Shown here: positions 18,068-64,000 of the stretch, piece by piece | Layout of the letters: the number at the start of each line of letters is the position of its first letter | Position numbering within the stretch: the first letter of the stretch is position 1 | Origin: Flaccisagitta enflata | Lineage: Eukaryota | Assembly (NCBI GenBank): GCA_965153355.1 | Contig: OZ231126.1 | Coordinates: forward strand, 3,100,001 to 3,164,000 | DNA: 64,000 nucleotides | Reading direction: 5' to 3' | Position numbers and translations under genes: made by a program | The notes under the pieces: model-generated | Told to the model about the DNA's origin: nothing | The model's database searches: none | Seen by the model: only the letters and a program-made list of their open reading frames with translations

Positions 18068-20017
<1,950 letters not shown>

Positions 20018-20260
20018 CGAATGCTGATTCGGGAGATCCTTGAAGGGTTTTTAACATTTTTATCGAATTGGTTTTGGTTTTTCCTTTTTAGTTTTTTTGG
20101 GGTCCATTACAAATTTGAATAAAGACTTATCACGTTCATTATCTTTTTTCGTTCATTTTGTGTTTCGTTGTAGATTTCTTTTTTTTTTTTTTTTTTTTAT
20201 CTCTGTTTTGTTTTTTTTCGATGCTCGGCAAACGCTTGCTATGAAAGGCAGAGTAGTAAG

Positions 20261-20915
20261 ATGAATTCTGATGTCGTTTATGGTGTCATCTCACTACCCA
20301 TGTCTTTCACGGCACACGCAGCAAAGATGAATTCTGATGTAGTTTATGGCGTCATCTCATTACCCATTTCTTTCACAGCACACGCAGTAAAGATAAATTC
20401 TGATGTCGTTTATGGCGTCATCTCTCTACCTATGTCTTCCACAGCACATGCAGCAAAGATGAATTCTGATATTGTTTTTGGTGTCATCTCACTACCTGTG
20501 TCTTTCATGGCACACGCAGCAAAGATGAATTTTGATGTTGTTAATGGCGTCATCTCACTACCCATGTTTTTCACGGCACATGCAGCAAAGATGAATTCTG
20601 ATATCAGTTGTGGTGTCATCTCTCTACCCATGTCTTTCACAGCACACGCAGCAAAGATGAATTCTGATATTGATTCTTGTATCATCTCACTGTCCATGTC
20701 TTTCACGGCAGGCGCAGCTAAAATGAATTCTGATATTGTTTCTGGTGTCATTTCACTACTCACGTCTTTCACGGCACATGCAGCAAAGATAATGTCATTT
20801 ATATTGTCATCTCGCTACCCATGTTGTTCACGGCACATGCAGCAAAAAAAATGTTGTTTATGGTGTCATCACACTACCCATGTCTCTCACGGCACACGCA
20901 GCAAAGATGAAAATT
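20261..20915 (+). repeat. 66-bp minisatellite, about 10 copies
   Basis: Unit ATGAATTCTGATGTCGTTTATGGTGTCATCTCACTACCCATGTCTTTCACGGCACACGCAGCAAAG; the last copies carry indels. Confidence 0.95.
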
Positions 20916-32939: not shown

Positions 32940-33440
32940 CCTCCTCATGTATGGTATCTCGTTGCTCATTTTTGCTCCCACTGCTCATTTTTGCCCACGT
33001 TGCTCTTTTTGCTCTCATGTATGGTATCTCGTTGCTCATTCTTGCTCCCACTGCTCATTTTTGCCCCCGTTGCTCTTTTTGCTCTCCTCATGTATGGTAT
33101 CTCGTTGCTCATTTTTGCTCCCATTGCTCATTTTTGCCCTTGTTGCTCTTTTTTCTCTCCTCATATATGGTATCTCGTTGTTCATTCTTGCTCCCACTGC
33201 TCATTTTTGCCCCCATTGCTCTTTTTGCTCTCCTCATGTATGGTATCTCGTTGCTCATTCTTGCTCCCATTCCTCATTTTTGCCCCCGTTGCTCTTTTTG
33301 CTCTCCTCATGTATGGTATCTCGTTGCTCTTTCTTGCTCCAATTGCTCATTTTTGCCCCAGTTGCTCTTTTTGCTTTCGTTGCTCATTCTTTCTCCTGTC
33401 GCTCATTCTTGCTCATTTTTGCCCCCATTTTGCTCTCGCA
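32940..33440. repeat. 73-bp minisatellite array 1
   Basis: Unit CTCCTCATGTATGGTATCTCGTTGCTCATTCTTGCTCCCACTGCTCATTTTTGCCCCCGTTGCTCTTTTTGCT, built from TGCTC subrepeats. Confidence 0.92.
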
Positions 33441-34443
33441 GTTTTGAAAGATTAATAGAACGACCTTGGTTTGATATCAAACGGAAATATTATCATGCTT
33501 ACTCAAGGTAAAGCTTAATACATCTAATAGCCGTGGTGCCTATTTCGTGTGTCAGAGGGCCGAAAACGGGCTAAACTGGCTTTCCCCTGGCGATCACCTG
33601 TTTCCTTTGCAGAAATCCTGGCAAACAAGCCCTTGCGCGACTTTCAATTTGATCGGGAACCATCAAGGTTGGAGTTTGTATTGAATAAGCATTTGCATCT
33701 GTTTTTCTGTTATGTATATTTTGTTCCTGCCATGTATCTCTATGGAAACTCAACAGTCACCCTAACGATGGTTCCCGACTGATCTGATAGTCGTAAGACA
33801 GCTTATTTGTAAGCATTTTTGCGAAGGAAAAACTTTTTTTTCCAGGGAAAGTTCAATATTGGCCTTTTTAGGCCCCCTGGCTAACGCAGTGCCCATGACT
33901 GCCCATGGTGAATTCTGAGGCCTGTCAATGAAAACAAAATTTGGATGGACGAAAGTCAGTCGTGCCAAAAAAAGATCACATCTGACAATTTTACACCTTA
34001 TACAAAAAAAAGCATTTATTTTATAGAATATGAATGGCAATCAACAATGATAAAGAATCTTTAAGTCCACAAAGATAAGAACAGGATGAGAACATTTGAG
34101 TCTGAAAATGCGCTTAGAAATAAGAACGCTGAGCCTCACTTAAAAAAAACTTAGTTCTTGTTAACAATGTCACTGCAGAGTTGCAACTAACTCTTTTATC
34201 CATAACAAATAATGAACCGGTGACCGTTGATAGTATAGAAAGGCTAAACAAGGTACTTAGGCTAAGGCGGGCTAAGGTAAGATAATGTAGTATTGAAAGG
34301 CAGCAAAGGGTATTTGAGGTAAGGTAGGGTAAGGTAGTATTGAAAGGCTGCAAAAAGGATTTGAGGTAAGGTAAGGTAAGGTAAGGTAAGGTAGTATCGA
34401 AAGGCTGCAAAAGGTATTTGAGGTTAGGTAAGGTAAGGTAAAG

Positions 34444-35100
34444 CTCTCCTCATGTATGGTATCTTGTTGCTCATTCTTGCTCCCACTGCTCATTTTTGCC
34501 CCCGTTGCTCTTTTTGCTCTCCTCATGTATGGTATCTTGTTGCTCATTCTTGCTCCCACTGCTCATTTTTGCCCCCATTGCTCTTTTTGCTCTCCTCATG
34601 TATGGTATCTCGTTGCTCATTCTTGCTCCCACTGCTCATTTTTGCCCCTGTTGCTCTTTTTGCTCTCCTCATGTATGGTATCTCGTTGCTCATTCTTGCT
34701 CCCACTGCTCATTTTTGCCCCCGTCGCTCTTTTTGCTCTCTTCATGTATGGTATCTCGTTGCTCATTCTTGCTCCCACTGCTCATTTTTGCCCCCGTTGC
34801 TCTATTTGCTCTCTTCATGTATGGTATCTTGTTGCTCATTCTTGCTCCCACTGCTCATTTTTCCCCGCATTGCTCTTTTTGCTCTCCTCATGTATGGTAT
34901 CTCGTTGCTCATTCTTACTCCCATTGCTCATTTTTGCCCCCTTTGCTCATTTTTACCACCGTTGCTCATTTTTGCTCTCGTTGCTCATTTTTGCTCGCGC
35001 TGCTCATTTTTGCCCCCATGGCTCATTTTTACCACCGTTGCTCTTTTAGCTCTCGTTGCTCAGTCTTTCTCCTGTTGCTCATTTTTGCTCTCGTCGCTCA
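34444..35100. repeat. 73-bp minisatellite array 2
   Basis: Same unit; it resumes at about 36295-36350 after an inserted element. Confidence 0.92.
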
Positions 35101-58711: not shown

Positions 58712-60334
58712 TATGAAGTTATACTTACTCAAAGCCTATCTGCTTTCAGAAAAAAAAACATAGAGTTAATTTCATTTTTCTATCGACGTTATATCAATTA
58801 TTTTCGATTTTCGCTAATGTGTTAGTCAACCGCGGCACAAGATATGAAACCTGTTCGGAGGCGTCCCTCGATGAGGAAGGGCGTTTTTAGTCGCGTGCTA
58901 CGCGACTCTATAAGCCACTTTGTCGGTCGGTCCGTCGGTCGGTCCGTCGGTTGGTCGGTCGGTCGGTCCATCACAAAGTCGTTTTAAAGGCTTTTTATCA
59001 CGTTTTTGATGGCTCTAAATAGCAGAGAAGAAACTTGGAGGAGTAAAAAGTGTTTATAAAGTGCTTTTGAAAAAAAAACTTTTTGTCCGTCTGTCTGCCT
59101 GACATTTTTTGAAAGTGTTGACGCACGCGACTTAGGTCTAATGACCTTGTTCAGTATGCGTCAGCACCGAATTGAACCTCTTGACAATCGAGTACAAAGT
59201 CGAGTAACTCCTTTTTTTTAAAATTCAACCTTCAATGAAGTTTTTCTCTTCTTCACTCCAGACAGCTTAACTTTTTATGGAATTCAAAATACAGAGAGGT
59301 AAGGTTACATCATCTAATTGGATACTGAAAATTGCGTGTTGTCACTCTTAAGTCCCAAGAAGTATATTGGCAACATGTGGTTTGTATCTTAGTCGCTCAA
59401 AAACGGCTTGTTTATTTTTCTTATGGCTAAAGGAAAACCGGAGACATTCTGAGCTACGGACACATTGATTTCTTTATTGCAGGGTTCTGTTGGCGAAGTT
59501 ATCCATTTTTATTTTTCCTGTCTTCTTCATCAAGCCACAGCCTTCATTCTTCCACCATCATCAATCTAATCGATTGAAATGAAAAAGATATGCAACTCGT
59601 CATAGTGGAACCCCTTCTTCACTTCAATGGTAGGATGTCTATCATTTCTTTTGATTACTAAACATGTTTAGATGTTTCTGATTGGGCGTAATCTCTTAAA
59701 TCGCGGATGAGCAGCTCTGTCGGTTAGATGATTATCTAATTCTACGATCCATGTGTCCATCCCCAACACAAAATAAAGCTCCAGTTCCTTGAGATTCACT
59801 CTGAGAATGGCTAGTTAGTAGTGCTTTTGGGTAAATTTTGTTTCGTTTTGATTCACATAATGCTCAACTCAACCATGATAGTTAAAATGTTACCAATTTT
59901 TCCCACATCTATGTTTCATTGCGAGACATTTTAAGCTCCGAGAGAGGCAAAAAAGCTGTCAACTCGACAGATATTTACAGGGTGAAGTATCAAAGAGTAA
60001 ATCCAGTGAGAAGGTGGGCAGTTTTTGGACCAAAGGAATGATGTTGAATGAAGTAGTAAAAAATTAGTTCTTTTTTTGCCACCTGTGAAGAGTTACCAGC
60101 TCATCATCATTTAACAAGGCCGAGACAGTTAGAGTCGTTACCATGGCATGTGATGTCCCAAATTCATGACAATAAGCTCATTAGTCAATTTGGGGAAAGT
60201 TAAAGGACTTAAGACGGCAGCTATGATATTTCATTCCTATTTGAATAATCCTTTACCGACTAGATGTGGGGTATGTGTTAACAAAAAGTTACGCTCAGAC
60301 TTGTCACCAACGTCCATATACGCATATACGTATA

Positions 60335-60977
60335 CACGCTTTTGACTGAGTAACAACGAGGTTTTTTTTCTGAGGCTCAATGTTGTTATTTGAATGATGA
60401 TATGAGGCTCAAATTGTTGCTAAATTGTTATCATTTTTTCTATCACTATCTTTTATAGCAAGAATTGATTGCCTTGTCTATGACAGGTGGAACAATATCC
60501 CTCACTATGTAATACCATCGTTCTTTTTGCCACTTTCTGCGGAATACAACGACGAAAAAAAAAAAACATCTTTAGTCGCGTGCACGCGACTCTACAACCC
60601 GCTTTGTCCGTCGGTCGGTTGGTTGGTCGGTCACACTTTACTTTTTTTTATGATTTTTTTTTCTGACCACACTGCTCCCGCCTAAATGGTCTGGTGACTT
60701 CAAAAACGGCCCCTGCCCACCCGCACGCGACTTCGGTAGCCGTGTATCCGGCCTTGTTTATAGAACCGCCGCATGTGACAATTAAAAATAACGGAAATAA
60801 CAACAAATCTGAAAGAAAAAATATCATTGGTTGGACATGAGACAGAAACGTCTTTTCGTTTTCTGAGGCTGACAATGTTGCTAGTGCTGTTCTTATTTTT
60901 CTAGTGATGTTCTTATTTTTCTTCCAATTTGAGCCTCAACGTTGTTATAAAAAGGATGTTACTCAATCAAAAGCGTG
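60335..60977. mobile_element. TA-flanked MITE containing a family B insertion
   Basis: TA|CACGCTTTTGACTGAGTAACA ... TGTTACTCAATCAAAAGCGTG|TA. Confidence 0.8.
60570..60758 (+). mobile_element. Family B HINE/DINE-1-like element (representative copy)
   Basis: TTTAGTCGCGTGCACGCGACTCTAC 5' hairpin, (GGTC/GGTT)n microsatellite and GCCGTGTATCCGGCCTTGTT end, inserted in T-runs. More than 15 relatives, e.g. 137-262, 2866-3012, 18375-18522, 42417-42600, 43443-43637, 45603-45863, 47309-47485, 58885-59150. Confidence 0.75.
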
Positions 60978-61039: not shown

Positions 61040-61630
61040 AGTCGCAAAAGCGTTAGATGGTCAGCGGTACCCGTGCCCTGCCTAAGTAGGTTGTGCTTCA
61101 GGTTGAGGGGGAGCAGGGCAGCGGCCCCGAAGGGTTCCATGACCTATGCTTTCACACATATGGGGGATTTTCTCCTCCTCCGTCCCTCCCCCCTCAAATC
61201 CCAGTCTCGAGGCCCAAATCCCAGCCTCGAGGCTCAATCCCCAGTCTCAAGGCCCAAAACTCAGCCTCAAGGCCCAAATCCTAGCCTCAAGGCCCAAATC
61301 CTAGCCTGGAGGCCCAGATCCCAGCCTTGAGGCCCAAATCTCAGCCTCGAGGCTGGAATCTGGGCCTTTTTGCTGAGATTTGGACCTTGAGGCTGAGATT
61401 TGGGCCTCAAGGCTGGGATCCAGGCCTCCAGGGTAGGATTTGGCCCATGAGGCTAGAATTTGGGCCTTGAGGCTGAGTTTTGGGCCTCGAGACTGGGGTT
61501 TGAGCCTCGAGGCTGGGATTTGGGCCTCGAGACTAGGATTTGAGGGGGGGGGATGAAGGAGGAGAAAATCCCCCATATGTGTGAAAGCATAGGTCATCGA
61601 CCCCTTCGGGATTGGGGCCACTGCCCAAAA
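61040..61630 (+). mobile_element. Family A element, most intact copy
   Basis: GGGCAGCGGCCCCGAAGGG...GACCTATGCTTTCACACATATGGGGGATTTTCTCC and its reverse complement flank a palindromically arranged ~21-bp repeat array. Confidence 0.8.
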
Positions 61631-61721
61631 ATTAAATGAGCTTTTACATGAGTTTGGGTTCAGTTTAAGTATCAAGGTCTATGTAACATGCGGTTTTAAC
61701 CCTCTCTCTTGCTTTTCACAG

Positions 61722-61864
61722 GTCCTTCCAACATCGATTCCCTTCCATCTTCTTGCTTAATCAACTTGATGCAAGAATTGTTAAATTGGAACAGTAATGG
61801 AAAAGGATACCCATGGACATAGGACAAGATACATGTGATACAATTCATTTGTCCTGATTTCAAG
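61722..61864 (+). other. Candidate non-coding 5'UTR exon of the NACHT gene
   Basis: Strong acceptor ctctctcttgcttttcacag| and donor CAAG|gtaaga, with stops in all three frames. A downstream acceptor gatttttcag| at 62610 precedes the ATG. Confidence 0.5.
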
Positions 61865-62038
61865 GTAAGATGGTGACTTGAATTTTTTCCTGATACGCGA
61901 TGTCAAATGATAAATAGTGATAAAAAGAGACTTGATACAATATTCAGTTGTATGTTTACGTTCAGGTGGACATGGGCCACTATGCAAAGATATTCATGCA
62001 GTTGGGAAGCGGTCATGACGTAAAATACAGAACATGAC

Positions 62039-62113
62039 CAATTGGCCAGAGAAAAGTCATGATTGAGAGAAAGATGGTCCAATGAGCGGAAACAGTTGTT
62101 GAATAATTATAAA
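62039..62113 (+). promoter_or_regulatory. Possible proximal promoter of the NACHT gene
   Basis: CCAAT at 62039 and 62079, GCGGAA, and TATAAA at 62108-62113, about 600 nt upstream of the ATG. Confidence 0.3.
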
Positions 62114-62712
62114 TCCCAGCACCATTAGGATGACTGTTCAGACAAGAAAAGAGAATGAGCACTATTGAAGACAGGATTTTACGTTTCGCTTAAGCATCAG
62201 GCACATAAACAAGATACTCTCATACAGATGAGAATACGGTCATAATTGAGAACAAATGTGCGCAGCTTTCATTGACCACGGGAATGGGTGTGCTTGTATG
62301 ACAAGCGGATCAATATTCCTCACCATACCCAAACTGTATAAGATGGAAGGGGGCCTCCATGACTAGTTAATACGAGCACCACTTCTGGTTTTCCATAAAA
62401 CTGAATCTGAAAAACATTCAGTTTCCATCTAGCCCAAAAGCAAACTGCTTACCAAAAGTAGCAAATGAGTGTTACCTGTTTAACCAAAATTGTTATGTCA
62501 CACAGATTTGATAAAACATTTGAACACGGTGAATAAAAAACGATGTTTTTGTGACGACAAACCTGATGGCATATTTTTGCTAATGCTGAAGACCCTGATA
62601 GATTTTTCAGTCCACGGTTTGTGCTCTCGGGTCAGCATCAGTTTTGCTACTCGGTCTATGCGATTTTGTATCTAAGATTCCCTTTGCCCTGTAACGGTAA
62701 GCCATATTCGAG

Positions 62713-64000
62713 ATGGAGCCGACAGATCCTAACTCCGCGGTGTTGATGCTGCCAGCGGATCACTTTCCATTTGGAGAAGACTGCAAACTATCGCGCTTGT
62801 TCCAATCGGTCCTTTTCCATCATGATGTTCAACCCAAGGTTGTGGATATCTTGCAAGAGCAGGAAATCTTTTCACTTCAGGAGATACGTCTCGCCGACCC
62901 GGATGGCAATCAGGAGAGCCAGAATCTTTTTCAGGAGATTGCAAATCAAGTTTCTTCTCCCGTGCGTTGTCTCAGATTGAAGAAAGCCTTCCGTCGAATG
63001 CTCCGTCCGGATCCATTGGCGGCCATCAATGACTTGCCGTCTGTCGCTGGCCATACTTCCTCTGCTGTGAATGCTATTACCACGGGCGCCACTGCCATCG
63101 GTGATGCCACTTCCACTAATTTGGCATCTGAGAGGGTGGCAAACAACATGAATGTTACGGTCAAGGAGTCAACTGTTCAAGAGCAGATTAATGCAAGCAC
63201 AGTCATTAAAAATGTAAATGTGACAGATAGCACCAAGGAACTTGGGAAAGATGATTTGAATGAATTAGAAAAAGAATTTCGAGAATATCTGAAAGAAAAC
63301 ATTAAAAATCATCATGGAGAAATCTCCATTCCGGCTTCCAAACAACGAGCAAAGTTGAGTGAAGCTGTTCTTAATTTGAAAGTAAAACTAAAGAGAGAAG
63401 CCGAGGAACCGCATTTTGTCCAAGAGACGAATGTATCAAACGAATCAGAATTCGCTCAAAATTCTGATTCTGATTCTGATTCTGATTATTTCGATTATTT
63501 TCATTTATTTTCTGATTCTGATTCTGATTCTGAGTCAGAGATGCAAGGTGCAAATTCTGAATCGGTGCCAGATACTGAAACCGACATGCCATATCAACTA
63601 TCAGCATACACACCAGATGAGGACCTTGATGAAGAGAGTTCTGATGATTTTCAGGAGCCAGTTGAGTTCATTGAAATATGTTCCACCATTGAAAGTGGTA
63701 ATAGGCTTGTGATAATAACAGCTCCCGGAGGAAGAGGAAAAACCACAATTGCCAAGAAGATAATGTGGTGTTGGGGAAATGATACCTACTTTCAACTCCA
63801 AGGCTTTTCCATGGTCATTTGGATCGATGCAAAGTACATTGACAATGATAGCAACCTCTTTGAAAATTTTGTGAAGCAATACAACTTCATCGAGGGAAAA
63901 TTTTCACCATCTAAATGGAAGAATTTACCCGAAGTGATCCGACAAATTCAAGAGCGAATCGTTTGGATGGTGGATGGCCTCGATGAAAGCGCAAATCATT
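62713..64000 (+). CDS. NACHT-domain (NLR-like STAND NTPase) protein, 3'-truncated by the window edge
   Basis: Stop-free for 429 codons from ATG 62713, with an in-frame TAA upstream at 62698. Walker A LVIITAPGGRGKTTIAKKIMWCW (core 63721-63747), FSMVIWID strand, and NACHT-type Walker B IVWMVDGLDE (63958-63987). Confidence 0.92.
   Translation, partial: MEPTDPNSAVLMLPADHFPFGEDCKLSRLFQSVLFHHDVQPKVVDILQEQEIFSLQEIRLADPDGNQESQNLFQEIANQVSSPVRCLRLKKAFRRMLRPDPLAAINDLPSVAGHTSSAVNAITTGATAIGDATSTNLASERVANNMNVTVKESTVQEQINASTVIKNVNVTDSTKELGKDDLNELEKEFREYLKENIKNHHGEISIPASKQRAKLSEAVLNLKVKLKREAEEPHFVQETNVSNESEFAQNSDSDSDSDYFDYFHLFSDSDSDSESEMQGANSESVPDTETDMPYQLSAYTPDEDLDEESSDDFQEPVEFIEICSTIESGNRLVIITAPGGRGKTTIAKKIMWCWGNDTYFQLQGFSMVIWIDAKYIDNDSNLFENFVKQYNFIEGKFSPSKWKNLPEVIRQIQERIVWMVDGLDESANH

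Follow-up and report, generated by a model that had tools for sequence, protein, structure and literature searches.

A truncated NACHT NTPase gene with a SAM-like N-terminal domain in a 64-kb stretch of Flaccisagitta enflata DNA

The Reading Frame and the NACHT Domain

The stretch of DNA analyzed here (hereafter, the window) comprises 64 kb of contig OZ231126.1 of Flaccisagitta enflata (assembly GCA_965153355.1, forward-strand positions 3,100,001–3,164,000), and its last 1.3 kb is occupied by the 5′ part of a NACHT nucleoside triphosphatase (NTPase) gene (Table 1). On translation, the forward-strand frame at 62713–63999 gives 429 codons without a stop and stays open through the window end (stop to stop, 62701–63999). 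The chance expectation of such open frames, calculated for six frames at the base composition of the window, is about 2e-9, and no other high-complexity frame in the window is as long (433 codons stop to stop, the next longest having 257). A preliminary description made from the sequence alone had pointed to these 429 stop-free codons as missing from the open reading frame (ORF) track; they are missing because the default listing omits frames that run off the sequence, and the frame appears as 3′-open once open ends are allowed. The ATG has G at both −3 and +4, and a pyrimidine-rich stretch with an AG end at 62700–62701, just upstream of it, could be the 3′ splice site of an intron in the 5′ untranslated region. 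We read the fragment as the first coding exon, or the 5′ portion of one, of a NACHT receptor gene, truncated here, that belongs to a marine protostome invertebrate (see section MicroRNA Cluster, Host Type, and Repeats), and regard this gene as real. In one DNA sequencing run (X1), identical unique contigs cover the frame at a depth of about 80, which equals that of the neighboring unique contigs; the gene is therefore not a high-copy element. A 225-base piece of the region with 15 differences was also found in a marine metagenome run. None of the sequencing runs listed as containing the stretch is on record as RNA.

The Pfam NACHT model (PF05729) matches residues 331–427 with 32.8 bits (E 7.6e-8), above its curated gathering score of 26.7, and the NACHT identity proposed in the preliminary description therefore holds. 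The match covers model positions 1–94 of 167, and it is partial because the window end cuts the domain. The P-loop (APGGRGKT, residues 337–344) and the NACHT-type Walker B both lie where the preliminary description had placed them, and both are recovered in a motif test with the definitions [AG]-x4-G-K-[ST] for the P-loop and hhhhD-G-h-D-E for Walker B. Among PDB sequences, the best matches come from NLRC4 and NAIP, in their NACHT domains, and all are weak (E 0.011–0.27); an NCBIfam search of the protein returned noise only. On this sequence evidence, the fragment is confirmed as part of a gene for a NACHT-type signal transduction ATPase with numerous domains (STAND).

Table 1. Features of the gene fragment and of the microRNA cluster (positions are those of the window; residues are numbered from the ATG).
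Feature	Position	Strand	Basis or remark
In-frame TAA, four codons 5′ of the ATG	62698-62700	+	Sequence read
ORF, 429 complete codons, runs past the window end	62713-64000	+	5′ part of NACHT NTPase gene
N-terminal domain, residues 1-110: conserved extended arm (1-27) and five-helix SAM-like bundle	62713-63042	+	AlphaFold2, fold search, family hidden Markov model
Ala/Thr/Ser-rich linker, residues 111-143	63043-63141	+	A 24%, T 18%, S 12%; low predicted confidence (pLDDT)
N/V/T/Q-rich beta-prone motif, residues 144-173	63142-63231	+	Alignment with relatives, shuffle z-scores
Pre-NACHT helix and strand (ELEKEF...ISIPAS...AKLSEAVLNLKV), residues 184-224	63262-63384	+	Conserved columns
Acidic Ser/Asp/Glu tract, residues 229-318	63397-63666	+	30 D/E, 0 K/R
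Hexanucleotide microsatellite ATTCTG, 12.2 copies, in frame	63461-63533	+	Encodes SDSDSD runs
First half of NACHT domain	63703-63993	+	Pfam model positions 1-94 of 167
Walker A APGGRGKTT, residues 337-345	63721-63747	+	Motif
Walker B IVWMVDGLDE, residues 416-425	63958-63987	+	Motif
mir-71 hairpin	20235-20315	-	59 bits, gathering score 50
mir-2 hairpin	18884-18959	-	45.5 bits, equal to the gathering score
mir-2-like hairpin, weaker	19386-19456	-	29.7 bits

The SAM-like N-terminal Domain

The N-terminal domain has predicted helices at residues 28–36, 41–49, 55–60, 67–77, and 83–96. AlphaFold2, run with an 81-sequence alignment, gave the domain a mean predicted local distance difference test (pLDDT) value of 86.7 and a predicted template modeling score of 0.76; from residue 112 on, pLDDT is below 50. 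The helical effector domain that had been proposed at about residues 25–98 is thus present as far as its helices are concerned and can be refined to a SAM-like bundle, its effector role staying putative. In a structure comparison against 48,161 chains that does not depend on Foldseek, the top 16 rows are all SAM-domain entries (Z 4.2–5.6), with LEAFY as the best neighbor (4ude; Z 5.6, root-mean-square deviation 2.3 over 67 residues), SARM1 among them (9l2g; Z 5.0), and further SAM domains from EphA2, BICC1, CASKIN2, and tankyrase. The weak rows of a Foldseek search include the SAM domains of tankyrase, BICC1, LEAFY, and EphA2 (E 3–8), and a protein atlas gave weak SAM leads for the head (score 0.76–0.80, under the trust level). 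The head is accordingly modeled as a SAM-like five-helix bundle and not as a death-fold; it is named SAM-like, rather than a member of the SAM family, because the Z-scores are modest and no SAM profile matches by sequence.

A hidden Markov model (HMM) built from 79 relatives, with the window excluded, scores 166 bits on the N-terminal domain of the window, which marks it as an intact family member. Its nearest relatives have 14 columns without variation (P3, L13, P14, P19, C24, L26, R28, Q31, L34, H36, L47, P63, D64, L72), and the domain retains every one of them. In a tree of 136 rows, the domain pairs with a single protein, P0003.

A Family of N-terminal Domains Without a Library Name

HMMER, run exhaustively against 1.84 billion representatives from clusters at 50% identity, gave 142 matches at E ≤0.001. 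When the query was split into three parts and searched locally against 143 stored proteins, the N-terminal part (residues 1–125) matched 119 of them, the NACHT part 22, and the part with the motif and helix five. None of the 143 stored relatives carries both the N-terminal domain and NACHT, and no animal SAM–NACHT receptor was found in the titles or abstracts of the literature searched. The closest protein, P0003, is a 168-residue fragment that is 90% identical to residues 1–155 of the window protein; it leaves the window sequence after about residue 150 and stops 13 residues past residue 155, before any NACHT domain. Its divergent tail, compared by eye, fits no other frame of the window; the divergence may stem from an intron, from a rearrangement, or from a join made in assembly.

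The proteins of this family (within P0004–P0174) derive from metagenome-based assemblies in ENA, JGI, and Logan. No names are attached to the 14 family clusters that were looked up, and Pfam, NCBIfam, and PHROGs all lack a family for the domain, PHROGs giving no meaningful match. Members typically have a Met a few residues 5′ of the domain, at the same distance as the start in the window, and the domain is followed first by a linker of Ala/Ser/Pro character, then by an acidic tract, and finally by a conserved sequence, "...LF..V..EV". Many members turn to noise right after that sequence, as at an intron, and most resemble a first exon. Different C-terminal parts are found: in P0074 the domain is followed by a GDSL hydrolase (E 4.8e-7; 30.9 bits, below the cut-off of 32.9), P0058 and P0139 have a further C-terminal domain in common, and P0058 carries a CCHC knuckle pattern at residue 478 (Pfam zf-CCHC, E 0.7). 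The domain thus comes with at least three kinds of tail, which makes it a portable N-terminal module, and the sequences fit the idea of a portable adaptor. When an alignment of the domain was searched against proteins of 792–2260 residues, none was found, a weak sign that the domain is uncommon in long proteins.

Relatives of the domain were absent from viral contigs. The sole match at a metagenome locus (L001, 10001–10120, from a 9-sequence alignment) was discarded as a false positive, as it lies antisense inside a 566-residue gene on a bacterial contig of 348 kb. Kinship between the N-terminal domain family and the receptor family was also considered and was dropped on a profile–profile probability of 0.1%; the same comparison disposed of the likeness between "...DL..LF..V..EV" in the former and "..F..LC.AIES" in the latter.

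From the Linker to the NACHT Domain: the Receptor-side Relatives

The layout between the head and the P-loop follows the preliminary description segment by segment, in that the Ala/Thr/Ser linker is evident from composition, a conserved helix and strand precede NACHT, and the long acidic insert contains acidic residues and no basic ones (Table 1). The motif between linker and pre-NACHT element (residues 144–173, NNMNVTVKESTVQEQINASTVIKNVNVTDS) has alternating beta-branched residues, and N, V, and T make up 19%, 19%, and 16%, respectively, of residues 144–175. The first Met of P0002 aligns to residue 144, and Met146 of the window lies two residues further on. The motif begins at position 1 in P0002, 7 in P0005, 15 in P0125, 17 in P0095, 31 in P0061, and 67 in P0132. 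Compared with shuffled sequences, its similarity has a mean z of 0.93 and exceeds a z of 2 in six of 28 pairs, among them window–P0095 (4.3) and window–P0005 (3.0). In the helix–strand element (I.IPAS...AKLSDAVLNLK), the I..IP and V columns are invariant across six sequences. An acidic tract lies 5′ of the P-loop in 9 of the 12 family members, the window counted, whose upstream sequence is 60 residues or longer.

The receptor-side relatives include P0002, P0005, P0061, P0079, P0125, P0034, P0103, P0104, and P0113. P0002 (763 residues, with NACHT and NPHP3_N) is 48% identical to the window protein over residues 319–429 and 40% over residues 145–223, and its NACHT domain covers positions 10–162 of the PF05729 model. 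A word-index search for longer proteins with the window protein found P0002 only, and a search of the same kind for near relatives of P0002 found only P0002 itself. Across the 143 relatives, Pfam assigns NACHT in 16 and NPHP3_N in 10. Toward the C-terminus, P0125 (1332 residues) ends in Kelch repeats; P0002, P0079, and P0113 have no Pfam repeat and carry about 450 residues read as a winged-helix/helical module, and leucine-rich repeat families are absent from the 25 most frequent families of the 143 relatives scanned. The Walker motifs recur in the receptor relatives in the forms A-x-G-G-R-G-K-T and h-h-W-h-h-D-G-L-D-E. We therefore read these proteins as a probable receptor subfamily that shares an N-terminal N/V/T/Q motif, the helix–strand element, an acidic Ser/Asp tract, and NACHT.

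Two of the relatives in which the motif comes first, P0005 and P0061, begin with Met-Gly-Asn, and P0061 has a Cys at position 4. The N-terminus of P0005 fits the N-myristoylation pattern, and these termini hint at membrane anchoring of some members of the subfamily.

MicroRNA Cluster, Host Type, and Repeats

A microRNA cluster on the reverse strand (18884–20315) consists of a mir-71 hairpin and, downstream of it in the same orientation, the mir-2-like hairpins (Table 1). Marco et al. (2012; PMC3384581) record mir-71 from protostomes, cephalochordates, hemichordates, and echinoderms, and describe mir-2, which arose in protostomes, as usually linked to mir-71. The cluster therefore identifies the host as a protostome invertebrate, in agreement with the invertebrate origin suggested earlier; a deuterostome host, conceivable on mir-71 alone, was dropped once the adjoining mir-2 hairpins were found. 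A tandem array of a 66-bp unit (20258–20911, 10.1 copies) starts within the mir-71 hairpin. The unit contains the miR-71 5p arm in reverse complement. Rfam recognizes a hairpin in the first unit only, and the array may consist of arm-derived units.

Apart from the NACHT gene, a Pfam scan of the 98 other window frames of at least 84 residues revealed no further gene, the matches being of low complexity and below threshold; microsatellites and tandem arrays are abundant in the remaining 62.7 kb. Arrays of one 73-bp unit (32941–33375 and 34443–35030; 6 and 8 copies, 92% matches) are open in several frames, and many of the long low-complexity ORFs stem from them. A palindromic element at 61126–61610, about 1.1 kb upstream of the gene, is built of 20-bp tandem units in opposite orientation; its arms of 177 nt are 92% complementary and 14 nt apart, and the outer arms (61126–61192 and 61544–61610) reach 93%. 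Words from this element reach a very high depth in the DNA runs, and some RNA reads fall on it; it looks like a high-copy foldback repeat or one resembling a miniature inverted-repeat transposable element. Repeats of the (GGTC/CGTC)n type, with flanking sequence common to both places, lie at 58900–58972 and 60584–60632. The former is covered by about 160 poly(A) RNA reads per strand with loose ends on both sides, and this heavy cover is therefore attributed to an expressed repeat family located elsewhere in the genome.

Comparison With Known Systems

With the NACHT STAND proteins among animal NOD-like receptors (NLRs), such as NLRC4, NAIP, and NLRP proteins, the gene shares the Pfam NACHT domain, the P-loop, and the hhhhDGLDE Walker B. 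It also shares a helix–strand element and linker 5′ of the P-loop, at the place that the pre-NACHT extension FISNA occupies in NLRP3 and in fish NLRs. The likeness to FISNA is limited to position and helix–strand pattern: the Pfam model (PF14484) has no match in the whole protein at E up to 1 or in residues 111–229 at E up to 10, and the paper describing FISNA reports none outside vertebrates (bioRxiv 10.1101/027151). Unlike animal NLRs, the window gene has no CARD, PYD, DD, or BIR head, and it has a long acidic Ser/Asp tract.

The RHIM–NACHT–repeat proteins of Branchiostoma presented by Kajava et al. (2014; PMC4262963) are likewise invertebrate proteins with a short, non-globular, beta-prone motif directly 5′ of NACHT, in the position of a death-fold. 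They differ in that the window motif matches no RHIM model or chain, the host is a protostome, and a SAM-like domain is added in front. The NLR-associated amyloid signaling of fungi and bacteria (NWD2/HET-S) resembles the relatives of the window gene, in which a motif at the very N-terminus is followed by NACHT; it differs in that neither the 64-kb window nor the stored proteins hold a motif-bearing partner, and there is no sequence kinship to known motif families. According to a 2022 survey, such signaling appears specific to fungi and bacteria; the survey also reports SAM_Ste50p at the N-terminus of fungal NLRs (PMC9815663). The latter are comparable to the window gene in having a SAM-type domain at the N-terminus of an NLR. 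With the SAM oligomerization heads of SARM1, tankyrase, and LEAFY, the head shares a predicted five-helix bundle with a long last helix; it is unlike them in the lack of a SAM-family sequence match, the extra conserved N-terminal arm of 27 residues, and the modest Z-scores, and its self-association is putative.

Interpretation and Alternatives

Taken as a whole, the account that we favor, and consider probable, is that a NACHT receptor with the motif at its front gained a SAM-like head at its 5′ end, and that these heads are clustered on activation. The head is taken as the 5′ addition because the motif opens the related NACHT proteins at or near the first residue. About 143 residues, comprising the SAM-like domain and the Ala/Thr/Ser linker, would have been added in frame on the 5′ side; they would have been drawn from the large family that is otherwise without NACHT, with the linker as part of that family's own linker. 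A C-terminal sensor beyond the window would keep the NTPase closed, and activation with nucleotide exchange would lead to oligomerization through the NACHT domain, which would in turn cluster the N-terminal modules. Clustered SAM-like heads could then recruit proteins with the same domain through like-with-like contacts, and the motif together with the pre-NACHT element would be the subfamily's own N-terminal signaling or regulatory piece. We infer oligomerization, recruitment, and an immune role by analogy, and an immune or cell-death role would be expected from the family to which the protein belongs.

Several observations weigh against this account. Z-scores of 4–5.6 are within the range common for small helical bundles. 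Foldseek found no match for the domain in the PDB at E ≤0.001. No Pfam family, SAM included, matches residues 1–110 at E up to 10, and the profile of the N-terminal domain family, searched against PDB sequences, gave low-complexity matches outside the domain only. The fusion of this domain with NACHT is known only here and is therefore young or rare. Because the window ends at NACHT model position 94 of 167, the remainder of the NTPase lies outside it, as do the sensor and the stop codon. Expression, one of the checks proposed in the preliminary description, was not seen: among 12.2 million reads, or about 6%, of the single poly(A) RNA run sampled, which carries the same organism label, no read fell on 61618–64000, and the reads that matched the window fall on repeats. 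Finally, X3, another DNA sample under that label, has no depth on 62623–63225 and 63628–64000, although such a hole proves nothing. X3 covers the upstream sequence at 61610–62412 with 30 differences in 806 bases (3.7%), and its gap over the gene may reflect presence/absence or strong allelic divergence. Taken together, the data fit, without proving it, a gene that is single-copy, polymorphic, and perhaps variable in presence.

The first alternative, which we consider unlikely though not negligible, is that residues 144–173 form an amyloid-type signaling motif like those of NWD2/HET-S, bacterial NLRs, and RHIM proteins, in which a beta-arch, nucleated when the activated NACHT oligomer clusters the motif, would template the same motif in a partner, so that the protein would have two polymerizing modules, as the preliminary description had proposed. 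Its N-terminal or near N-terminal place in P0002, P0005, P0125, P0095, and P0061 is as in fungal and bacterial NLRs; a composition high in N, V, T, and Q, in which beta-branched residues alternate, the low-confidence linker that flanks it, and the order-specific similarity above shuffles in 6 of 28 pairs all agree with such a function. The position and composition of the amyloid-like motif, which had been placed at about residues 143–172, stand; sequence searches lend its amyloid kinship no support, as eight pieces of the motif, searched at E up to 10, hit neither RHIM nor HET-s nor any other amyloid-motif family, and RHIM chains are absent from the PDB matches to a profile built from them. 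The RHIM core is the tetrad (I/V)-Q-(I/V/L/C)-G, and it is missing from the VQEQINAS of the window, so that neither the profile (Pfam PF12721) nor the tetrad places the motif in the RHIM family. Moreover, 22 of the 28 motif pairs are no closer than shuffles, and an HMM of the motif, run over all six frames of the 64-kb window and over the other 167 stored proteins, recovered no further copy. The window gene has the motif at an internal place (residue 144), not at a terminus; six of 32 residues are charged, and the motif may belong to a folded pre-NACHT regulatory element. The published RHIM–NACHT–repeat architecture of Branchiostoma speaks for the alternative (PMC4262963). A related proposal, that the subfamily signals through its own amyloid-like motif of a non-RHIM kind and that this motif is coupled here to a polymer-forming SAM-like head, giving two nucleation modules, strikes us as improbable.

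A young chimeric or decaying copy that is unexpressed as written, either as a pseudogene from a receptor cluster with fast turnover or with translation from Met146 and an accidental SAM-like extension upstream, is quite unlikely. The absence of RNA reads in one run and the lack of cover over most of the frame in the second sample agree with it, as do the place of Met146, two residues past the position that matches Met1 of P0002, the microsatellite within the coding frame, and the fact that P0003, the only other copy of the junction, breaks off shortly after it diverges. However, all 429 of 429 codons are open, the microsatellite has a period that is a multiple of three, the SAM-like part keeps its 14 invariant columns and scores as a normal family member, and the Met start lies at the same distance from the domain as in the relatives; receptors of the NACHT kind are, in general, often expressed at low levels and inducibly.

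It is very unlikely that the head is an integrated bait, comparable to the integrated domains of plant NLRs and copied from a mobile-element family of Gag- or ORF1-like type or from a viral one, by which the receptor would co-assemble with and detect an invader protein. In favor of this reading, the family is large and diverse (119 carriers among the 50%-identity representatives), its domain is joined to NACHT in this gene only, and the retroviral-type knuckle of P0058 and the GDSL/SGNH hydrolase of P0074 recall the knuckle and esterase modules given as parts of long interspersed nuclear element ORF1 proteins in PMC3905857 and PMC4120745. Against it, such features occur in only 2 of the 119 carriers and both under Pfam cut-offs, no reverse transcriptase, endonuclease, or capsid is among the 25 most frequent families of the 143 proteins, no relatives turn up in viral contigs or PHROGs, many members read as a first exon with intron read-through after "...LF..V..EV", which is unusual for retroelements, and the DNA is single-copy in run X1.

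Implications for NACHT Receptors in Protostomes

NACHT receptors are reported to be absent from Drosophila and C. elegans (PMC2575513), and the heads and wiring of such receptors are poorly known in protostomes for this reason. The N-terminal architecture described above (SAM-like head, subfamily motif, pre-NACHT element, and acidic tract) is new in detail. The family to which the head belongs, with more than 100 diverged clusters and a confidently predicted fold, has no name in any library searched, and the window gene offers a probable case of domain shuffling, in which a SAM-like domain was placed ahead of a NACHT receptor that opens with its motif. The receptor subfamily holds a short N/V/T/Q-rich motif at the position where fungi and bacteria put amyloid signaling motifs; should it indeed signal through that motif, it would be an animal counterpart of the NLR-associated amyloid signaling of those organisms. 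If either the motif or the head polymerizes, these proteins would provide a tractable case for signal relay outside the death-fold in animal receptors.

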